From Bacteroidales bacterium (GTDB lineage: Bacteria; Bacteroidota; Bacteroidia; Bacteroidales; VadinHA17), in contig JARKQN010000102.1 of NCBI GenBank assembly GCA_029974835.1, positions 7,058 to 71,057 on the forward strand: 64,000 bases of DNA, written 5' to 3'. This document shows, piece after piece, positions 50,789 to 60,270 of this stretch. How positions within the stretch are numbered: the first letter of the stretch is position 1; every line of letters starts with the position of its first letter. The translations under genes were made by a program, and so were the position numbers. Under the pieces are notes generated by a model, which did no database searches, was not told where the DNA came from, and was given only the letters and a program-made list of their open reading frames with translations.

Positions 50789-51196
50789 TTATTTCTGTGG
50801 TTCGCACAGTTCAATCAGGACACCACCGGTTGATCCGGGATGCAGGAATGCAATGTTAAGACCATCGGCGCCCTTTCTTGGACGGGTGTCAATAAGGTTT
50901 ATCCCCGAAGCTGCAGCATCAACAAGCCTCTCAGCGATATCATCCACAGCAAAGGCGATATGGTGTATCCCCTCCCCTTTCCTTGAAAGGAAACGGCCGA
51001 CAGGTCCTTCGGGATCAGTACTTGCAAGAAGTTCTATCTTTGTCTGCCCCACCATAAAAAAAGCAGTCTTAACCTTCTGGTCTTCCACTTCTTCAATTTT
51101 ATAACATTCTGTTCCGAGAAGGTTGGTGTAAAACTCAATCGCTTTATCAAGATTCTCCACAGCAATTCCGATATGTTCAATATAAGCTGTTTTCAT
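50789..51196 (-). CDS. mce: Methylmalonyl-CoA epimerase
   Basis: IEHIGIAV, KIELL, GEGIHHIAF and FLHPGSTGGVLIEL. Confidence 0.93.
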   Translation of the reverse strand: MKTAYIEHIGIAVENLDKAIEFYTNLLGTECYKIEEVEDQKVKTAFFMVGQTKIELLASTDPEGPVGRFLSRKGEGIHHIAFAVDDIAERLVDAAASGINLIDTRPRKGADGLNIAFLHPGSTGGVLIELCEPQK

Positions 51197-51347
51197 ATAA
51201 ATTTATAATTATGTTATTCAGAGACATTTAGAATGAATTTTTCTTTTACGGCCTTCCCTGCCGGCACTGCCGCATCGGTCACTGTTCACCGAAGGTGACT
51301 TCCGGCCGGTGAAGCATCCTGCCAGGCTACCGCGATTAATCCTTATT

Positions 51348-52907
51348 TCAGAAAGGAAAATCTTCATGTTTAAGCTGGGTCTGTACATTTTCCGGCTTTC
51401 TGGCCGCCGTATGAACCGGGTTGCCGTTCACAAAGATAGCCTTATATGGTGTAACGGGGCATGCATATTCGCAATGTCCGCAACCTATGCATATATCATC
51501 TGTAGTTTCCGGTATTGTGAGGTTTCCCTTAAACGGAATCATGTGGACGGCTTTTGTAGGACAGCTTTCGGCGCATGCCCCGCACGCCGTACCTTCGGTC
51601 TCAACAATACAGTTGTCACGTATAAAAACCGCCTTCCCTATCTGTGTGAGCTTTTTCGCCTCCGGGAGAAGAGGCATCAGCGCGCCGGCAGGGCAGATCT
51701 CAAGACATCTGATACACTCGTATGCGCAGAACCCTCTGTGGTAATCCATATATGGCTGCATTATACCCGTTATACCGTATTGTTTGAAGGAAGGTACCAG
51801 TACATTATTAGGGCATGCGGAGACACAAAGTGAACATGCCGTGCAACGCGAAGTGAAGTTTGAAATCCCAACCGAGCCCGGGGGAGAAACAAAAGAGGTC
51901 CTTGGTTCTTTTACTGTTGAAGCTTTGACAGGAACAGGCACCCTGACACTTTTATCCTGGTTCTGCAAAACAGGCAAACCCAGTAAAAATGCGGCAGATC
52001 CTGCCATAAATGCCCTTCTTTCAGGATCAAACTGAGTTTCTTTCTTCCTGAGACTTCCAATTCCGAAATTCATTGCATTGTCGGGGCATTTTTCAACACA
52101 ATTGAAGCAGACGACACATCTCGAAAAATCAATTTCCTTATTAAGAAAATCGATACACGAAGATTTACAGGCAACGGCGCACCTTCCGCATTTCGTGCAC
52201 TTCTGCCCGTCAATCCTGATTCTGAAAACTAAAACCTTCGAAAGAAGCCCGAGCAGTGTACCTACGGGACATATCATATTACAGTAAAGCCTTCCTTTAA
52301 TCAGCGATAAAAAGCCAACCAGAAGCAGAAACAATGCCGGTATAACATATACCATCAGGCGGAATGGCGGTATCCGGATGTCTGCCAGTGCGTAGGAGTC
52401 GAAAAGGTGAAAAGCTGAAGCCATCAGATTGTTTATCCACAGAACCACAGGCTTTGCAAAAAGAGTCACTGACCTTCCGAAGATGCTGTAAGGATCAAGG
52501 ATGTTAAGCAGAAAAATGCCGCCCGTCAGAGTTACCGCAAGCGTAAGAGCCAGAATAAAGTACCTGACAACAGTATGTGGTTTCTTATACCCGTATCTGC
52601 GGAATCTCTTTTTAATAATACCCCCGACCCTGCCCGAAATATCCTGTAATATGCCGAGAGGGCATATAAAAGAACAATAGGTACGTCCGGTGAGTAAAGT
52701 CAGTATCAGGACTGCCATAAATCCGAGTGCTGCAGCCTCCCCGGCGTCGATAAACTTTACGGCAGAAGGAACAAACTGAAGCCAAAGTACCAGGTTGAAT
52801 AAACTTTCCGGAATAATGTGCCTGATATCTGTAAAGAGAAGGCCGGTCAGAACCAGGAAAATAGCGGCAATAATTACCCGAAATCTTTTCAGTCTCTTGT
52901 AATTCAT
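51348..52907 (-). CDS. Membrane polyferredoxin (NapH-like TM/CxxxCP module fused to a NapG/NapF-like multi-[4Fe-4S] domain)
   Basis: TM helices, YCSFICPLG, YCNMICPVG and six ferredoxin-type Cys clusters. Confidence 0.88.
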   Translation of the reverse strand: MNYKRLKRFRVIIAAIFLVLTGLLFTDIRHIIPESLFNLVLWLQFVPSAVKFIDAGEAAALGFMAVLILTLLTGRTYCSFICPLGILQDISGRVGGIIKKRFRRYGYKKPHTVVRYFILALTLAVTLTGGIFLLNILDPYSIFGRSVTLFAKPVVLWINNLMASAFHLFDSYALADIRIPPFRLMVYVIPALFLLLVGFLSLIKGRLYCNMICPVGTLLGLLSKVLVFRIRIDGQKCTKCGRCAVACKSSCIDFLNKEIDFSRCVVCFNCVEKCPDNAMNFGIGSLRKKETQFDPERRAFMAGSAAFLLGLPVLQNQDKSVRVPVPVKASTVKEPRTSFVSPPGSVGISNFTSRCTACSLCVSACPNNVLVPSFKQYGITGIMQPYMDYHRGFCAYECIRCLEICPAGALMPLLPEAKKLTQIGKAVFIRDNCIVETEGTACGACAESCPTKAVHMIPFKGNLTIPETTDDICIGCGHCEYACPVTPYKAIFVNGNPVHTAARKPENVQTQLKHEDFPF

Positions 52908-52913
52908 TGAATA

Positions 52914-53834
52914 TTATAATTTTATCCTTCTGATATTCAATGAATCAAGGTTCATATTGCCGATTCCCATCGAATGTGCCAGTTTAATATAATCAATACC
53001 TGAAGGGTCGAGCTTCAGCATCCTGGCAGCGGCTGCATCGCCTGCCACCCAGTCGGTTGTAATAATCTGCGACATAAGATTTGCGACATCCTCTTTTGAA
53101 ACACCCTGGGGGCCGTTTTTGGTCATAACATTATAGCAGTCGATAACATTAAGCGCAGGTTTACGGTGGAAGAGTGCATAATCGGCAATGCACTGATGGA
53201 GGTTATTGCGATGCCAGAAGCCTCTGTCCCATACAACACCCATCATGTTTTTCAGGCAGCAGGTCATGCGGGTTGAGTCATGATCCTTGAGCACCGGAAC
53301 ATTGATAAAGACGTCGGTTTCGAGCAGAACAGAGTGGACCCTGGCATTCTTTAAAACCTTTGCCCCCTGTATGCTTATTTCCTGATAATAGCTTTCACTG
53401 TTGGCCGGGACAACCCTGGCGCCTGCATCTTTTGCGGCTCTCTCGATGCCGGAATTTTTATAGCAGCTCGTCCAGTTGTCGCAGGTGTGATCAAACACAT
53501 AGACTTCCTTAGCCCCCGCCCTGAAACAATGCTCAATAATTCTTTTTACCAGTGCCGGGTTTGTACAGGCCGCATATTCGGGTGTTCTGTCCCATCCTAT
53601 ATTGGGTTTGACAAGAACCTTCTGTCCCTTGCGTACAAAAAGACCCATTCCGCCAAGTTCCTGTATGCCAAGATCAAACATAGCTTCGGGTTTGCCACCC
53701 ATCAGAGCTATCATGTCATAGGCAGGTGCCTCAGGATGAGTCTTCATTATGTTTCCATAACCGCCAAACCCAAAAGCAGCACCCGCGGCAATTCCCGCTC
53801 CGGCTGATTTCCTGACAAAATCTCTTCTTTTCAT
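52914..53834 (-). CDS. Tat-exported DUF362 domain protein
   Basis: MKRRDFV twin-arginine signal, VLVKPN, TNP, INVPVLKDH, LKNMMG and D.VAGD. Confidence 0.85.
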   Translation of the reverse strand: MKRRDFVRKSAGAGIAAGAAFGFGGYGNIMKTHPEAPAYDMIALMGGKPEAMFDLGIQELGGMGLFVRKGQKVLVKPNIGWDRTPEYAACTNPALVKRIIEHCFRAGAKEVYVFDHTCDNWTSCYKNSGIERAAKDAGARVVPANSESYYQEISIQGAKVLKNARVHSVLLETDVFINVPVLKDHDSTRMTCCLKNMMGVVWDRGFWHRNNLHQCIADYALFHRKPALNVIDCYNVMTKNGPQGVSKEDVANLMSQIITTDWVAGDAAAARMLKLDPSGIDYIKLAHSMGIGNMNLDSLNIRRIKL

Positions 53835-53915
53835 AACATCAATAACCAGATGCCGAAATTAATCTTTTCCCCTGCAACCACAAAGGGTCATATTATGTAT
53901 ATTTTCCGGATCAGG

Positions 53916-53937
53916 CTTTTTAACATATTTTAAAAAG
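53916..53937. promoter_or_regulatory. Inverted repeat CTTTTTAA-N6-TTAAAAAG, possible operator in the divergent DUF362/larC promoter region
   Basis: Perfect 8-bp arms at 53916-53923 and 53930-53937. AT-rich, so a chance occurrence is possible. Confidence 0.35.
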
Positions 53938-53989
53938 GCAAATATTAACTTTACGGCGCAATAATTGTTTAATAAATAATAACCGGTAG

Positions 53990-55177
53990 ATGAGAATACT
54001 CTATTACGATTGTTTCTCCGGGATCAGCGGAGATATGAACCTGGGGGCCCTTACAGATCTCGGCGTGGATCCTGATTTTCTCAGGAGTGAACTTAAGAAA
54101 CTGAACCTGGAAGGCTGGAAGCTTGAAACTGAGAAGGCTCAGAGGCATGGTATTTCAGGAACAAAAGTGACAGTTAAGCTTACCAGAAAAGAGCATTCGC
54201 ACCGTCACCTGTCAGAAATCAATAAAATCATTGATAGTTCTCAACTGGATGAAAAAACCAAACAGCTCAGCAAACGAATCTTCAGAAGGATTGCCGAAGC
54301 TGAAGGCAAAGTACATGGCATACCTGCCGAAAAAGTTCATTTTCATGAAGTTGGAGCGGTCGACTCAATAATCGACATTACCGGTGCAGCAATCTGCCTT
54401 AATGCACTCAATATAGACGAGGTTCATGTTTCCGCGATTGAGCTTGGCGGAGGAATGGTTAAATGTGACCATGGACTTCTGCCTGTTCCTGCTCCGGCCA
54501 CGGCTGAAATACTGAAGGGTATACCCGTAAGAAAAGACGGCGTTGATTTTGAGGCAACGACTCCCACCGGCGCAGCTATAATTGCAGAGACGGCCGGCAG
54601 GTTCAATGAGTCCGTTCCCCTAAAGATACTTAAAACAGGATATGGGGTTGGGCATAAAGATCACCCGGCTGTTCCAAACCTGTTAAGGGTTTTTCTGTGC
54701 GAGCCTGCCGGCAATCAGGAAACAGGGCACGAGGCTGTTCTGCTCGAGTGCAATATAGATGACATGAATCCGGAATTCTATGAGTATATAACCGGCCGAC
54801 TATTCGAAGCCGGTGCATCAGACGTTTACCTCACATCAGTAATGATGAAGAAAGGAAGGCCGGGTACGGTTCTTAGTGTCATAGCCGAAAAAGGCCTTGC
54901 AGGCGTACTTACCGGAATTCTGTTCACTGAATCAACGACTCTCGGAATAAGAAGCTTCCCCTTTATGAAGGAGACCTTATCGAGAGAATTTCACGAGTAT
55001 GAAACACCTTTCGGGAAAGTAAAATTCAAACACTCGTTTTACAGGGGGAAAGAAGTATCAGTGAAGCCCGAAAGTGAGGATTGCAAAAGAATTGCAGGGG
55101 AAACCGGCCGGCCTCTGCGGGAAATATATAATATCCTTCTGGAAACCGTAAGGAGTAAAAAAGTAAAAAATGAATGA
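53990..55177 (+). CDS. larC: NPN cofactor nickel insertase LarC (single fused ORF)
   Basis: YYDCFSGISGDMNLGAL, HSHRH, VHFHEVGAVDSIIDI, HGLLPVPAPAT, TPTGAAI, NIDDMNPE, MKKGRPG, ESTTLGIR and KPESED. Confidence 0.95.
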   Translation: MRILYYDCFSGISGDMNLGALTDLGVDPDFLRSELKKLNLEGWKLETEKAQRHGISGTKVTVKLTRKEHSHRHLSEINKIIDSSQLDEKTKQLSKRIFRRIAEAEGKVHGIPAEKVHFHEVGAVDSIIDITGAAICLNALNIDEVHVSAIELGGGMVKCDHGLLPVPAPATAEILKGIPVRKDGVDFEATTPTGAAIIAETAGRFNESVPLKILKTGYGVGHKDHPAVPNLLRVFLCEPAGNQETGHEAVLLECNIDDMNPEFYEYITGRLFEAGASDVYLTSVMMKKGRPGTVLSVIAEKGLAGVLTGILFTESTTLGIRSFPFMKETLSREFHEYETPFGKVKFKHSFYRGKEVSVKPESEDCKRIAGETGRPLREIYNILLETVRSKKVKNE

Positions 55178-55961
55178 AAGAAAATTAACCAGCCTCGATT
55201 CTGCCCTTTTTCAGCTAAATCCGGTTGTGATAGCCTACTCAGGAGGAGTTGACAGCTCATTTCTTGTACACCGCGCATCTTTAGTTAAAGGGCTGAAATC
55301 GGCCGCCGTGACAATCAAAACACCCTATGTACCGGATCGTGAACTCAACGATGCTGTGGATTTCTGTAAAATATACGGTATTGAGCATCATATTGTTCAT
55401 ATTGAATTCCCGGAAGCTGTAAGAAACAATCCGCCCGAAAGGTGCTACCTTTGCAAGAAATTTCTTTTCAGCAGGTTAAAGGAGTTTGCAGCCATGAACG
55501 GCTATGCTTATATCGCCGACGGATCAAACGCAGATGATCTTAAAAGCTACAGGCCAGGACTGAAGGCTCTTGCCGAGCTTGGCATAAGCAGTCCTCTTGC
55601 AGAATCCGGACTTACCAAGGAGGAGATCAGGAAAGCATCAAAGGATGCCGGCCTGCCTACATGGGATAATCCTTCCATGGCCTGTCTGCTTACAAGGCTT
55701 CCATATAATGTAACCATAACCGAAAAAGAGCTTAAAATGGTGGAGGAGGCTGAAGACTTCCTGTTCGAAAACGGATTATATGGCACCAGGGTAAGGATGC
55801 ATGGCAGCATAGCCCGCCTGGAATGCATGCCAGGTTATATGGAAAAATTCATTTCGGGCCCCGGCCGTGAATTTATTATTAAAAAACTGAAGGATATCGG
55901 GTTCAGGTATATAACTTTGGATCTTGAAGGTTACAGGTCGGGAAGCATGGATCAGACCTGA
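55170..55961 (+). CDS. larE: NPN sulfur insertase LarE
   Basis: PP-loop YSGGVDS, RCYLCK, DGSNADD...RPG, SPLAE and SMACLLTR. Confidence 0.94.
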   Translation: MNERKLTSLDSALFQLNPVVIAYSGGVDSSFLVHRASLVKGLKSAAVTIKTPYVPDRELNDAVDFCKIYGIEHHIVHIEFPEAVRNNPPERCYLCKKFLFSRLKEFAAMNGYAYIADGSNADDLKSYRPGLKALAELGISSPLAESGLTKEEIRKASKDAGLPTWDNPSMACLLTRLPYNVTITEKELKMVEEAEDFLFENGLYGTRVRMHGSIARLECMPGYMEKFISGPGREFIIKKLKDIGFRYITLDLEGYRSGSMDQT

Positions 55962-55991
55962 AAACAAAATAAATATAAAACCTCTTTCAGG

Positions 55992-56741
55992 ATGACTGCA
56001 AAGGAAATTGAAAAACTGCTTTCAGAAGTTAAGTCGGGCACAAAAAGTGTTGAAGAAGCTCTGGAAATACTTAAGTATTTTCCGTATTCCGACCTTGGTT
56101 TTGCACGACTCGACCATCACCGTGAGACTCGCACCGGTTACCCTGAGATTGTATACTGCGCTGGTAAAACCGTAGAGCAGGTGAAAGAGATTTTCAGAGT
56201 ACTTGCACGTGCCGAGCACAATGTTTTCGGGACAAGGGCTTCGGAAGAGATGTACAATGCCGTCAGGGAGGTAATCCCCCCGGCTGTCTACTATCCTGTG
56301 GCGCGAATAATAAGCGTAAGGAAAAAGGAACCGGAGAAGCCTGATACTTCAATAGCAGTTATTACCGCCGGAACATCCGACATCCCTGTGGCTGAAGAGG
56401 CAGCAGTAACGGCTGAACTGCTTGGCAATGATGTTGTGCGCATCTACGATGCCGGGGTTGCAGGCATTCACAGGCTAGTAGATAAGCTGCCCGAAATAAA
56501 GAAGTGCAGGGTGGTAATAGTTATAGCAGGGATGGAGGGTGCCCTCGCAAGCGTAGTGGGCGGACTTGTCGATAAACCTGTGATAGCCGTTCCGACAAGC
56601 GTAGGTTACGGTGCCAACTTCGGGGGTATATCAGCCTTGCTTGCCATGCTCACCAGCTGCGCTGCCGGAGTAAGTGTGGTAAACATAGATAACGGTTTCG
56701 GAGCCGGTTTCTCAGCCAGCATGATCAACAAGATCAGATGA
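55992..56741 (+). CDS. larB: NPN carboxylase/hydrolase LarB
   Basis: ARLDHHR, PEIVYCAGKT, AGTSDIPVAEEA, DAGVAGIHRL, AGMEGAL, PTSVGYG, LTSC and VNIDNGFGA. Confidence 0.96.
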   Translation: MTAKEIEKLLSEVKSGTKSVEEALEILKYFPYSDLGFARLDHHRETRTGYPEIVYCAGKTVEQVKEIFRVLARAEHNVFGTRASEEMYNAVREVIPPAVYYPVARIISVRKKEPEKPDTSIAVITAGTSDIPVAEEAAVTAELLGNDVVRIYDAGVAGIHRLVDKLPEIKKCRVVIVIAGMEGALASVVGGLVDKPVIAVPTSVGYGANFGGISALLAMLTSCAAGVSVVNIDNGFGAGFSASMINKIR

Positions 56742-57379
56742 ATTTTCCCCTGCTCCTTTCAACAGCATATTTCCCGCCCGTGCATTATCTGGCTCTGGCT
56801 GCCGCCGGCAGGGATACAGTTTTTATTGAAAGCCGGGAGAATTACATCAAGCAGACATACCGTAACAGGTGCTATATTCTTACATCAAACGGAGTCATTC
56901 CACTTACCGTTCCGGTTCTGCAGGGCAGTTTCCATAAAACGCCGGTCAGGGATATAAAAATAGATTATTCAAAGAGATGGCAGCAGGTACATTCAAGGGC
57001 TATTATTTCGGCTTACAGATCATCACCTTATTTTGAATTTTACATCGATGATATTGACGGGATAATAAACTCAAAAACGACATTCCTTCTCGACCTTAAC
57101 CTGATGACATTAAGATTGCTTACCGAATCGGCCGGTCTTGCTGTGCAATATTCTTTTACCACGGATTTCAAGGCCGTAGAAGATAAAGATCAGGACCTGA
57201 GGTACGCTTTGTCGCCGAAGAACAGCAAAATCAACAGTGAAATGTTTTCTTTCAAACCCTATATCCAGGTTTTTTCGGACCGTTACGGATTTATTCCGGG
57301 GTTAAGCTCTCTTGATCTGATATTTAACACCGGGCCGGAAGCGGTTAAATACCTTCCCGATCTGATGTCGGACCGTTAA
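56738..57379 (+). CDS. WbqC-like family protein
   Basis: LLSTAYFPP, YIKQTYRNRC, AYRSSPYFEFY, YIQVF and LSSLDLIFNTGPEA. ATGA overlap with the larB stop. Confidence 0.88.
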   Translation: MNFPLLLSTAYFPPVHYLALAAAGRDTVFIESRENYIKQTYRNRCYILTSNGVIPLTVPVLQGSFHKTPVRDIKIDYSKRWQQVHSRAIISAYRSSPYFEFYIDDIDGIINSKTTFLLDLNLMTLRLLTESAGLAVQYSFTTDFKAVEDKDQDLRYALSPKNSKINSEMFSFKPYIQVFSDRYGFIPGLSSLDLIFNTGPEAVKYLPDLMSDR

Positions 57380-57387
57380 ATTTCTTT

Positions 57388-58866
57388 TCAGAACTTAAAC
57401 CCGAGAGTTGCGGTAAAACTGTTCCGTGTAAACGTAACAGTGGCCGGTTTCAGATAGGGTTCATCGTCGTACATCAGGTATTGAAGGCTATTCGAGATAT
57501 TTGCAAAACCGAGGTCAAAATACATATTCTGCTGTCTGAATCCCAGTCCGAATGATATTGCATTATAGCTAAGGTCCTCGTTAATCTCTCCGCCTTTGAA
57601 CGCGCTTCCGTAGAGGCCGTAACCACCCCTGAAGTAGAATGTATTCAGTCTGAATTCCCCTCCCAGCCTGAGCACCGAGGCGGTTTTAAGTGCATTCCGG
57701 ATAGACTGGTTCTCATTATAATAATTATAGTCATCACTTGCCTTGCTGAAACGGGCTGTTGCATAATCGCTTATTTCATAATCTGCGCTTACTATCGCAA
57801 GCTTGCCGATTTGTACCGATGCACCCACCATTGCCCTGAAAGGAGTCGTGAGTGTATATGAATACCTCTTCGGTTCATTATTATTGTTATAGGTTAAGTT
57901 GTCGTCAAATTCGGAGGAAATCTGATCATAAAAATATTCCCGGATCCTGTAAACCGTTGGTGTATGAAATGCAGCGCCAATGCGAAGAATCTCCATCGGT
58001 CTTACAATGAAGCCCATTTTCAGGTTATAGCCCGTTCCGGAGGCTTCAAAATGATCGGTGTATACAAAATTTCTGAAATCGGGAATTACATTGTCATAGT
58101 CTGCCTCAAGGTGTTCGTAATGCCCTGTATATTTCAGCCGGTTTATTCCCAGGGTGGCCCCGAAGAAATATTTATCCGAAATGTTTGCGCCAATCGAGAA
58201 TGCATGTTCTCCTGAATAACCTTCATTGCTGATCACCCTTCTGATTGTCTGGCCATATACGGGGTCATTATCGCCGTAATTGGAGAACACTGTTCCGTAA
58301 CTTGCCCCACCGGAACCCGTTATTGTGTCGATAACCCACACATCGTATGCAATTCCTGCCGATCCTCTAAGGTTTTTGTAATAAGTCCCTTCCGAAGACA
58401 AGGCCCAGTAATCGGCCATGGAACTTATGTCACTTATTCCCGTGATGTTAATGTTTTCGTTGAAATTATTTGTCCTGTTCCATGAATATGCAAAATTAAG
58501 AGCTGTAAGACCTTCAGAACCCTGGTTAGAGATGAGATTTGACACCACGCCTGCCTGGTTAATTCCAAAGTGATATTTGAAATCTGTTGAGTTGGTTGCA
58601 TTAAAAACTGTACTTGTATTGTTGTAAAGCAGTCCGGGTGTGAATGCCATTTCGAACGATCTGAACATGCCTGTTCCGGCGGGGTTAAGGCTTATTGCAG
58701 ATAAGTCTGCCCCCAGTGAGGTAAAGGCACCGCCCATGGCCATAAAGCGAGCCGTACCGTAATTAAAAGTACGGGAGTATCTGAGTGCGTCATCGAGGTT
58801 CTGCGATGAGAGTGAGATTGTCAGCAGTGACAATGCTGTTATTGTGGTCAGAATTTGCTTTTTCAT
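57388..58866 (-). CDS. OmpP1/FadL-family outer-membrane beta-barrel
   Basis: DALRYS...GTARFMAMGGAFTSLGADLSAISLNPAG hatch motif and a C-terminal LGFKF. Confidence 0.88.
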   Translation of the reverse strand: MKKQILTTITALSLLTISLSSQNLDDALRYSRTFNYGTARFMAMGGAFTSLGADLSAISLNPAGTGMFRSFEMAFTPGLLYNNTSTVFNATNSTDFKYHFGINQAGVVSNLISNQGSEGLTALNFAYSWNRTNNFNENINITGISDISSMADYWALSSEGTYYKNLRGSAGIAYDVWVIDTITGSGGASYGTVFSNYGDNDPVYGQTIRRVISNEGYSGEHAFSIGANISDKYFFGATLGINRLKYTGHYEHLEADYDNVIPDFRNFVYTDHFEASGTGYNLKMGFIVRPMEILRIGAAFHTPTVYRIREYFYDQISSEFDDNLTYNNNNEPKRYSYTLTTPFRAMVGASVQIGKLAIVSADYEISDYATARFSKASDDYNYYNENQSIRNALKTASVLRLGGEFRLNTFYFRGGYGLYGSAFKGGEINEDLSYNAISFGLGFRQQNMYFDLGFANISNSLQYLMYDDEPYLKPATVTFTRNSFTATLGFKF

Positions 58867-58944: not shown

Positions 58945-60270
58945 TTATCTTCTGGTACCTGTTGTAACGCCGCCGCCTGAAGACCCGGAAGAAACACCCG
59001 AAGAACCTGAAGAGGAGACCCCTGAGGAGCCTGATCCACCGCCAAAGGATCCGCCAATTGAACTTCTGGATGATGAGAAGTCGCTGCTTTCCCTTCTGCC
59101 TGAAGAGACAGAGTTAAAGTTTGAGAAAGAGCTTCTGCTGTTAACGGGAGCCGAATAGTCACCCGAAGTGGAGGGTGCTGAGTAAGAGCGTACGGTAGAG
59201 TATGATGAACTTCTTCTTTCGGCGGCACCGTAACCAGACTGAACGGAACGGATATTTGTAACGGAGTTGCTTCTTGATTCTCCGGCAATACTTCTCTGGT
59301 AAGTCTCGCCTGAAACTCTTGTGTTGTTATATGATGGCCGTTCGCTAAGTCTCGGGTTGTTATACGTCGGGGTATATGAGCGTGATACCTGGTTATATTC
59401 AGGCCTTGAAGTGGCGGTGCTTCTTGTGGAAGTTGAAGCATCACGCCTGTTCTGAACAGCTGTGGTTGCCGATTCACGGGTTGAACTGATGGCAGATTCT
59501 GTTCTTCTGACATTGGTAACGGCATCGGAGGAGGAAGTGGCTGAAGTTCTTCTGGATCCGTCTGAACTGATCACGGATGTGGTTCTTCCCCTTCCTTCTG
59601 CCGGAAGAGTGGAGTATGACTTGCTCACTGTGCTGTATCTTTCGCGTCTTCCAACTTCAACCGATGAGTATTTATTGCCACTGTAGTTGTAGTTATATGC
59701 AGGCCAGTAGTAGCCGGAATAGTAACCGAAAGAGAACGGGGAGTAGAAAGAGCTGTAGTAACCGCCGTAGTAGCCTCCGTAGTATCCGCCGTAATAGCCT
59801 CCGTAATAACCTCCATAGTAGAATGGATCATACAGTCCGCCCCAGTATGGGGTGTTATAATAATCGTAGAAGCCCCACGGGTACATGCTCCAGCTGAAGT
59901 AGAACGGGTCTCTCCAGTAAGGATATATTGAACTGCCGTAGAATCTTCTCAGCCGGTTGGAGTATGACCAGTCGTCGGCATACTCGAACGGGCTGTTGTC
60001 TTTATTATAGAATGTGGAGTTGTTGAAGTCGACATTCTCATTATACTGCTCGGCAAAGAGAGTATCACCCGAGTAGATATTATCGTAGTACTGATCCTGC
60101 TGGTTGTTACCCGGCAGATTACTGCTGGCAATTCTTTCAACAGCCACTTTTTTGTCTGAGGGCAGGAAATAAAGATCATCGTATTCACTTTGAGCTATCC
60201 TGCCTCCTGTTGAGCATGAACCAGCAACTGCTGCTGCTGCCAGAACCACTATGTACAATTTTGCTTTCAT
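58945..60270 (-). CDS. Tyr/Gly-rich lipoprotein with a Ser/Arg-rich disordered tail
   Basis: Lipobox AGSC, YDDLYF, YSNRLRRF, a (YYGG)5 tract and a low-complexity C-terminus. GGAGG SD at 60276-60280. Confidence 0.8.
   Translation of the reverse strand: MKAKLYIVVLAAAAVAGSCSTGGRIAQSEYDDLYFLPSDKKVAVERIASSNLPGNNQQDQYYDNIYSGDTLFAEQYNENVDFNNSTFYNKDNSPFEYADDWSYSNRLRRFYGSSIYPYWRDPFYFSWSMYPWGFYDYYNTPYWGGLYDPFYYGGYYGGYYGGYYGGYYGGYYSSFYSPFSFGYYSGYYWPAYNYNYSGNKYSSVEVGRRERYSTVSKSYSTLPAEGRGRTTSVISSDGSRRTSATSSSDAVTNVRRTESAISSTRESATTAVQNRRDASTSTRSTATSRPEYNQVSRSYTPTYNNPRLSERPSYNNTRVSGETYQRSIAGESRSNSVTNIRSVQSGYGAAERRSSSYSTVRSYSAPSTSGDYSAPVNSRSSFSNFNSVSSGRRESSDFSSSRSSIGGSFGGGSGSSGVSSSGSSGVSSGSSGGGVTTGTRR
59755..59820 (-). 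repeat. 12-bp imperfect tandem repeat encoding (YYGG)5YY
   Basis: Five 12-nt units plus a half unit, differing only at synonymous positions. Confidence 0.9.

Follow-up and report, generated by a model that had tools for sequence, protein, structure and literature searches.

A predicted Tat-exported DUF362 protein beside a larC-larE-larB operon in Bacteroidales is a candidate user of the nickel-pincer nucleotide

Results

The window analysed here is a stretch of 64,000 nucleotides from a Bacteroidales bacterium (contig JARKQN010000102.1, positions 7,058 to 71,057), an organism that occurs in activated sludge and wastewater. Our subject is a locus of five genes in two divergent transcription units (Table 1). 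One unit is a larC-larE-larB operon for synthesis of a cofactor, nickel-pincer nucleotide (NPN), and the other encodes a DUF362 protein with a leader for twin-arginine translocation (Tat), followed by a membrane polyferredoxin. All five genes were confirmed in the arrangement that an earlier note on this DNA had described, including the spacing of 6 bp between the DUF362 and polyferredoxin genes and of 155 bp between the DUF362 gene and larC. That note had gone on to propose that the DUF362 protein is the enzyme for which the cofactor is made, and it is this proposal that we evaluate below.

Table 1. Features of the divergent lar/DUF362 locus, in window coordinates.
Feature	Position	Strand	Family match and remarks
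Membrane polyferredoxin, 519 aa	51348-52907	-	NapH::NapG-type fusion; Pfam Fer4_5, Fer4_7
DUF362 protein, 306 aa	52914-53834	-	PF04015, 172.8 bits (cut-off 24); full profile 1-200 covered
Divergent intergenic region	53835-53989	.	155 bp, AT-rich
larC	53990-55177	+	PF01969, 489.9 bits; full-length CTP-dependent nickel insertase, LarC1 and LarC2 parts fused
larE	55170-55961	+	TIGR00268, 289.2 bits (cut-off 150); ATP-dependent sulfur insertase
larB	55992-56741	+	NF033503, 304.1 bits (cut-off 175); nicotinic acid adenine dinucleotide (NaAD) carboxylase/hydrolase, first step of NPN synthesis
WbqC-like gene	56738-57379	+	PF08889, 116.8 bits; start overlaps larB stop by 4 bp

The DUF362 protein begins MKRRDFVRKSAGAGIAAGAA, in which a twin-arginine leader (MKRRDFVRK) runs into a hydrophobic stretch. 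Its orthologues all share R3 and F6, with R4 conserved to at least 90%, some relatives carry a precomputed match to PF10518, and TatC is encoded elsewhere in the same genome (contig C125, 224.5 bits). The protein is thus predicted to be a Tat substrate. In its AlphaFold2 model (pLDDT 87.7) only residues 1-34 are disordered, as expected for a signal peptide.

A Foldseek search of the PDB with this model returned LarA-family structures as all of its top 19 matches (E 1e-6 to 4e-4, TMq 0.37-0.52), including the NPN-bound structure 5HUQ as well as 8EZF, 9EID, 4NAR (GntE2) and 9Q3J. DUF362 and DUF2088 share the Pfam clan CL0471 (PMC11770544), and local alignment of broad DUF362 and LarA/GntE profiles with hhalign gave an E value of 0.0058 over 211 columns; the same comparison with narrow profiles, built from our DUF362 alignment (A1) and our LarA-type alignment (A2), was not significant (E 0.21). 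In a Pfam search the window protein matched PF04015 only and had no match to Lar_N (PF09861). Going by the structural model, we classify it as a short LarA-fold member of the LarA clan. Sequence comparison with the PDB returned nothing but short matches to coronavirus spike receptor-binding domain chains, which are spurious and were disregarded. These chance phmmer matches stem from residues 206-237 (motif WxRxxxxxCIADY...F..xxCYxV) and are without biological meaning.

Two functional residues of LarA have counterparts in the hhalign alignment: H185 of the DUF362 protein aligns with the catalytic H174 of LarA, and K195 with K184, the residue that tethers NPN, with the same H-x9-K spacing in both. 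K195 is conserved to at least 95% in every group of type A DUF362 proteins, the subtype found in the window, and it is invariant in 17 of 17 representatives of seven DUF362 subtypes from the window's genome and related ones. At this threshold (at least 95% in every type A group) the conserved residues are K76-P-N, D115, K183, H185, K195, R204, H208, D218 and D232.

The polyferredoxin gene lies directly downstream of the DUF362 gene in 20/20 and 79/80 related loci. Its product scores below the equivalog level against the NCBIfam models for NapH (87.6 bits, cut-off 213), NapF (69.6 bits) and NapG (62.5 bits, cut-off 178.9), and by sequence it is a relative of NapH and NapG rather than an equivalog of either. 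Four transmembrane helices and two CX3CP motifs (C78 and C209) are followed by a 2x[4Fe-4S] domain (residues 237-275), by an internal Arg-Arg pair with a hydrophobic segment (residues 297-316, RRAFMAGSAAFLLGLPVL) and by a C-terminal NapG/NapF-like domain with four further cluster motifs (355-485). The positive-inside rule predicts that the first of these iron-sulfur domains is cytoplasmic and the last periplasmic, a topology that would be compatible with a wire leading from the periplasm to quinone. In a sister clade, in which the genes are co-directional, the NapH-like and NapG-like halves are encoded by separate genes.

The opposing operon appears complete for NPN synthesis. LarC exceeds the NCBIfam equivalog scores for both of its parts (LarC1, 221.6 bits against a cut-off of 90; LarC2, 138.7 bits against 50), there is an 8-bp overlap between larC and larE, and the genome (2.9 Mb, 92% complete) has one copy of each lar gene. 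The window LarE has the three-cysteine pattern (C92, C95 and C172) of the [4Fe-4S]-dependent type (PMC9283937). The intergenic region presumably holds the promoters for both units. Alignment of 73 related intergenic regions revealed a weakly conserved AT-rich block only and no clear shared operator, and an Rfam scan of window positions 51000-57500 found neither a riboswitch nor any other RNA family. In one biofilm metatranscriptome, RNA contigs identical to the window cover the DUF362 gene, larC, larE and larB, which is weak evidence that both units are transcribed.

The pairing of the lar genes with the DUF362 protein is not a matter of chance: among the 80 nearest species, uncultured Bacteroidales throughout (67-81% identity), 79 show the two units divergent to one another. 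Of the family's 151 genomes, 143 have LarB and 131 a LarA-type gene; in most of the LarB-negative genomes the DUF362 gene is close to the end of a contig, and these were not counted as real losses. The 6 genomes of genus g146 and the 3 of genus g151 have kept LarB and contain no LarA or GntE homologue by profile hidden Markov model or direct protein search. In g151 the type A protein is the only DUF362 protein and the only member of the LarA clan. A 62-aa remnant of a GntE-like gene with an internal stop was seen in a further genome (G430:C7:314103-314216), and its sequence suggests that this species recently lost its LarA-type client though it kept the lar genes and the module of DUF362 protein and polyferredoxin. 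Another genome, G312 (96% complete), lacks the lar genes, LarA and any DUF362 protein; this joint absence is explicable by a single deletion because the lar and DUF362 genes adjoin.

The link is not confined to the divergent arrangement. A second, co-directional architecture, DUF362-NapH-NapG-LarC-(LarE)-LarB, was found in a metagenome-assembled genome of the Melioribacteraceae, on a metagenome contig and in the cultured species Saccharicrinis aurantiacus, so that DUF362 is associated with lar genes in two different gene orders and in two classes. The lar-adjacent DUF362 copies all form one clade (support 87/85). As a separate observation on operon content, larC adjoins larB with no larE between them, at the locus itself, in about ten species of the family (loci L047, L057, L064, L073, L079, L080, L085, L095, L096 and L100) and in S. 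aurantiacus (L134).

Other DUF362 subtypes are also associated with the lar genes, to differing degrees. The window's genome encodes six further DUF362 paralogues, two with Tat leaders and two with fused 4Fe-4S domains. Type B proteins (about 372 aa, cytoplasmic and highly conserved, with the motif HIYTTTTGAMKNAFGGLLNTKRH) were found in 25 genomes out of 301 sampled across the phylum, and all 25 carry lar genes (LarB in 24, LarC in the 25th), a tighter link than that of canonical LarA. Their genes (L110-L119, for example L117:5933-7051) lie next to a gene for a UbiA-family prenyltransferase or for an EamA transporter and are not adjacent to the lar genes. In two genomes from another family (L120:5572-9872 and L121:4921-9230), type C proteins (about 490 aa) are encoded directly upstream of larC-larE-larB and in the same direction; they are orthologous to a paralogue on contig C58 of the window's genome. 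We rejected assignment of types B and C to the cyanobacterial Npun_F2552 family (20-41 bits against a cut-off of 500). Two control genomes, Synechococcus elongatus and Haloferax volcanii, contain LarB, LarC and DUF362 and have no Lar_N match.

Beyond larB the window continues with the WbqC-like gene, which keeps its syntenic place at 71 of 80 related loci and, in the window's family, probably shares a transcript with the lar operon; as a general lar partner it was rejected, since none lies beside lar genes outside that family. Further along (58945-60270, minus strand) is a 441-aa open reading frame with a lipoprotein-like leader and long low-complexity repeats rich in Tyr, Gly and Ser, overlapped on the same strand by one of 202 aa.

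Discussion

We propose that the DUF362 protein uses NPN, as the candidate catalytic subunit of the module, and consider the grounds for and against this to be about evenly matched. The client role put forward in the earlier note draws support from the LarA fold, the conserved Lys/His pair, the recurrent linkage to lar genes and the genus g151; it is weakened by a LarA homologue elsewhere in the genome and by 23 genomes that have the module and neither LarB nor LarC.

If the proposal is right, the lar unit would make NPN from NaAD, and the DUF362 protein would be loaded with it in the cytoplasm, the cofactor being tethered at K195 or bound near it, with H208 as a candidate nickel ligand. The loaded protein would then be exported in its folded state via Tat and dock onto the periplasmic NapG-like domain of the polyferredoxin. 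There H185, the counterpart of LarA H174, may deprotonate the hydroxyl group of a periplasmic substrate, and a hydride would move to C4 of the pyridinium ring, as it does in LarA. Because H108 of LarA has no aligned counterpart and an iron-sulfur chain is at hand, we suggest that re-oxidation of the reduced cofactor then proceeds one electron at a time, by way of the [4Fe-4S] clusters and the NapH-like membrane part, to the menaquinone pool; the opposite direction would also be possible. That the protein binds NPN, that it is exported in the holo form, which way the electrons travel and that the chemistry is net redox are all steps that we infer.

Comparison with characterised systems helps to place this scheme. 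The LarA superfamily (Lar_N DUF2088 plus LarA_C; 5HUQ, 9EIA, 4NAR and 9Q3J) comprises NPN-dependent 2-hydroxyacid racemases and epimerases, and shares with the DUF362 protein its fold, clan, the counterparts of H174 and K184 and the linkage to larBCE. The mature DUF362 protein has about 270 aa against about 420 aa for LarA, it lacks a Lar_N match and conserved counterparts of R75 and H108, and many of its relatives are found in lar-less genomes. It is moreover predicted to be exported by Tat and is always paired with a polyferredoxin, and fusions to 4Fe-4S domains are seen in other DUF362 subtypes. Export, the polyferredoxin pairing and these fusions point to net electron transfer and not to isomerisation. 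The polyferredoxin itself resembles the NapGH quinol dehydrogenase of periplasmic nitrate reductase, and MauM/MauN, in combining a NapH-type membrane domain with a NapG-type domain behind a twin-arginine segment. Unlike NapGH, however, it is a fusion (519 aa) with far lower scores, its partner is a DUF362 protein, and NapA, NapB and NapC are lacking. A periplasmic enzyme that is exported by Tat with a tightly bound pyridine nucleotide, loaded in the cytoplasm, has a precedent in the glucose-fructose oxidoreductase of Zymomonas mobilis, although that protein uses NADP, has a Rossmann GFO/IDH/MocA fold and has no membrane iron-sulfur partner. That NPN chemistry extends beyond isomerisation is known from NphT, an NPN-dependent hydride transferase discovered through larBCE neighbourhoods without larA (PMC13524815, Nat Chem 2026). 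NphT is a non-racemase NPN enzyme with a His/Lys cofactor motif, as the DUF362 protein is proposed to be, but it has the unrelated TIM-barrel fold of the aldo-keto reductases (AKR), is cytoplasmic and has no iron-sulfur partner; the study that described it deliberately excluded LarA homologues (PMC13524815).

Several lines of evidence weigh against NPN use by the DUF362 protein. At the level of the active site, the DUF362 profile has a gap where the second catalytic histidine of LarA, H108, would lie, and the nearby H116 is Asn or Arg in several orthologues. The column of the phosphate-binding R75 holds W81, and no counterpart of this arginine is conserved; H208 and R204 are conserved in DUF362, yet they are not aligned to the nickel ligand H200 or to R75. 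The literature that we searched contains no experimental support for binding of NPN or nickel by DUF362 and no proposal of DUF362 as an NPN user, the family appearing there only as an outgroup in LarA trees.

The distribution of the module is a second difficulty. The earlier note had regarded close DUF362 orthologues functioning in genomes that lack lar genes as one of the observations that would speak against a client role, and this is largely what was found. Among 38 genomes with a type A-like DUF362 protein, 24 have no LarB, and 23 of these have no LarC either and show PurE-level matches only. These 23 genomes are 99-100% complete, two of them being single contigs. Their orthologues are 46-59% identical to the window protein (38% for one divergent copy), and a Tat leader and an adjacent polyferredoxin were present at 12 of 12 lar-less loci checked. 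The candidate active-site residues are conserved to at least 95% in lar-linked and lar-less groups alike, the two sets of copies differing only at M45/K and M190/L, so that a cofactor specific to lar-linked copies has left no mark on the sequence. A division of type A into lar-linked and lar-less functional classes was accordingly rejected, as no clade-specific residue lies near the active site. Given these identical active sites, NPN is used by the whole of type A or by no member of it, and in the former case species without lar genes would be supplied from elsewhere. DUF362 is likewise present in Bacteroides thetaiotaomicron, from which lar genes are absent, and the genome G299 falls inside the lar-linked DUF362 clade and is without lar genes.

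We also observed GntE-like orthologues with all NPN-binding and catalytic residues in nine larB-less genomes (loci L125-L129 among them), all nine of which carry the type A module; larC is absent from 6 of the 6 of them that were searched.

A third difficulty is the presence of other plausible clients in the window's own genome. The earlier note had described a larA-less system. This is accurate for the window's contig, on which there is no Lar_N match, but it does not extend to the whole genome, where a search for larA identified a single, weak Lar_N match (36 bits, over the cut-off). The protein concerned, a LarA homologue of 423 aa, is encoded beside a short-chain dehydrogenase/reductase gene on contig C12 (L001:1426-2697) and matches 4NAR with a phmmer E value of 1.7e-39. 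The structure 4NAR is that of GntE2, a D-gluconate/D-mannonate 2-epimerase whose dependence on NPN is experimentally established (PMC7583248). The C12 protein keeps the equivalents of D72, R75, H108, H174, K184 and H200, columns that are invariant in alignment A2, and by these residues it is a LarA homologue of the GntE2 type with the full NPN-binding and catalytic set. Together with the type C protein on contig C58 it offers the lar operon an alternative destination for its product. Finally, the genes flanking the locus are syntenic in related loci of the family as well, and adjacency within the family is for this reason not independent evidence.

These observations lend themselves to a different explanation, which we regard as possible though on balance doubtful. 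The module would be an NPN-independent, quinone-linked oxidoreductase of the periplasm with another ligand or metal at the Lys/His site; the lar genes would serve the GntE2-like protein, the type C protein or AKR-type, NphT-like clients; and adjacency would reflect inherited gene order, possibly with co-regulation. The 23 genomes with neither LarB nor LarC, the sameness of active-site residues in lar-linked and lar-less copies, a GntE2-like protein equipped with every NPN residue and the non-independence of adjacency within the family all favour it, as does the existence of NPN enzymes outside the LarA family, namely NphT (PMC13524815). Against it stand the tightly packed co-directional DUF362-NapH-NapG-larC-(larE)-larB operon of distant lineages and the retention of lar genes in genera without LarA or GntE, one of which (g151) is also without any other DUF362 protein. 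Conservation of the tether lysine and the catalytic histidine on a LarA fold likewise speaks against it.

Some lar-less loci hint at yet another role, in which the module would act on a vitamin-like or heterocyclic small molecule in the periplasm, such as a precursor of the pyridine type. Import of this molecule would follow, with phosphoribosylation in some lineages, and the lar genes would be linked to the module metabolically, through precursor supply, instead of through cofactor use by the DUF362 protein. A gene resembling the S component of energy-coupling factor transporters (ECF-S) flanks the module in 7 of the 12 lar-less loci, and also in Dysgonomonas hofstadii and at L132, where a 132-aa phosphoribosyltransferase is present as well (ECF-S-like loci: L010, L012, L014, L016, L018, L020, L021, L132 and L137); in 4 further loci (L023, L025, L026 and L029) the neighbour is a BioY-family gene. 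There are three different arrangements of such transporter-type neighbours, in about five lineages, and the lar-adjacent loci, like the window's genome as a whole, have neither an ECF-S-like nor a BioY gene. A transporter paired with a phosphoribosyltransferase was rejected as a universal feature of lar-less loci, being found in some lineages only. Judged by gene neighbourhood, this distribution fits a 'make or import' pattern, and would fit import of the enzyme's product equally well. We consider the precursor role improbable. It is favoured by the occurrence of these neighbours where lar is not adjacent; but the same genes would equally suit import or salvage of NPN or its base for the DUF362 protein, they are confined to about five lineages, and no such transporter gene is found in the window's genome. 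LarA-type residues on a LarA fold also speak for a bound pyridinium cofactor over a pyridine substrate.

A role of the module in assisting NPN biosynthesis, for instance by providing LarE or LarC with electrons, sulfur or nickel, is suggested by its position next to the lar genes, by the cytoplasmic iron-sulfur clusters of the NapH-like part and by the iron-sulfur-dependent type of LarE, but is highly improbable. NPN is made in the cytoplasm, and a periplasmic location is predicted for both the DUF362 protein and the NapG-like domain; LarBCE is sufficient by itself, in E. coli as well as in vitro (PMC11796402). In the majority of lar-positive genomes, moreover, the module does not lie beside the lar genes, and it is frequent where lar genes are absent.

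Around 15% of genomes, including most cyanobacteria, make NPN without LarA, and the client in these organisms has been stated to be unknown (PMC11796402); NphT provides one answer. If the DUF362 protein is a client, many such orphan lar operons would be accounted for, nickel-pincer chemistry would take place outside the cytoplasm, and NPN would be coupled to respiratory electron transfer. The DUF362 orthologues of lar-less genomes, and the GntE-like proteins there that retain all NPN residues, further raise the possibility that NPN is exchanged among the members of microbial communities. Cultured organisms provide handles on both forms of the locus: S. aurantiacus has the co-directional DUF362-lar operon, and D. 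hofstadii and Macellibacteroides have the module with no adjacent lar genes.

It is tempting to extend the proposal to a much wider picture, which taken as a whole we think unlikely. DUF362 (PF04015) would constitute a second large NPN-binding branch of the LarA clan, in which the Tat-exported members and their NapH/NapG partners would be the first extracytoplasmic NPN enzymes and the first to convert the hydride of this cofactor into electrons for an iron-sulfur chain and quinone. Species without lar genes would import NPN or its base through the ECF-S-like transporter, some of them with the help of the phosphoribosyltransferase, and NPN would be a shared, vitamin-like metabolite.

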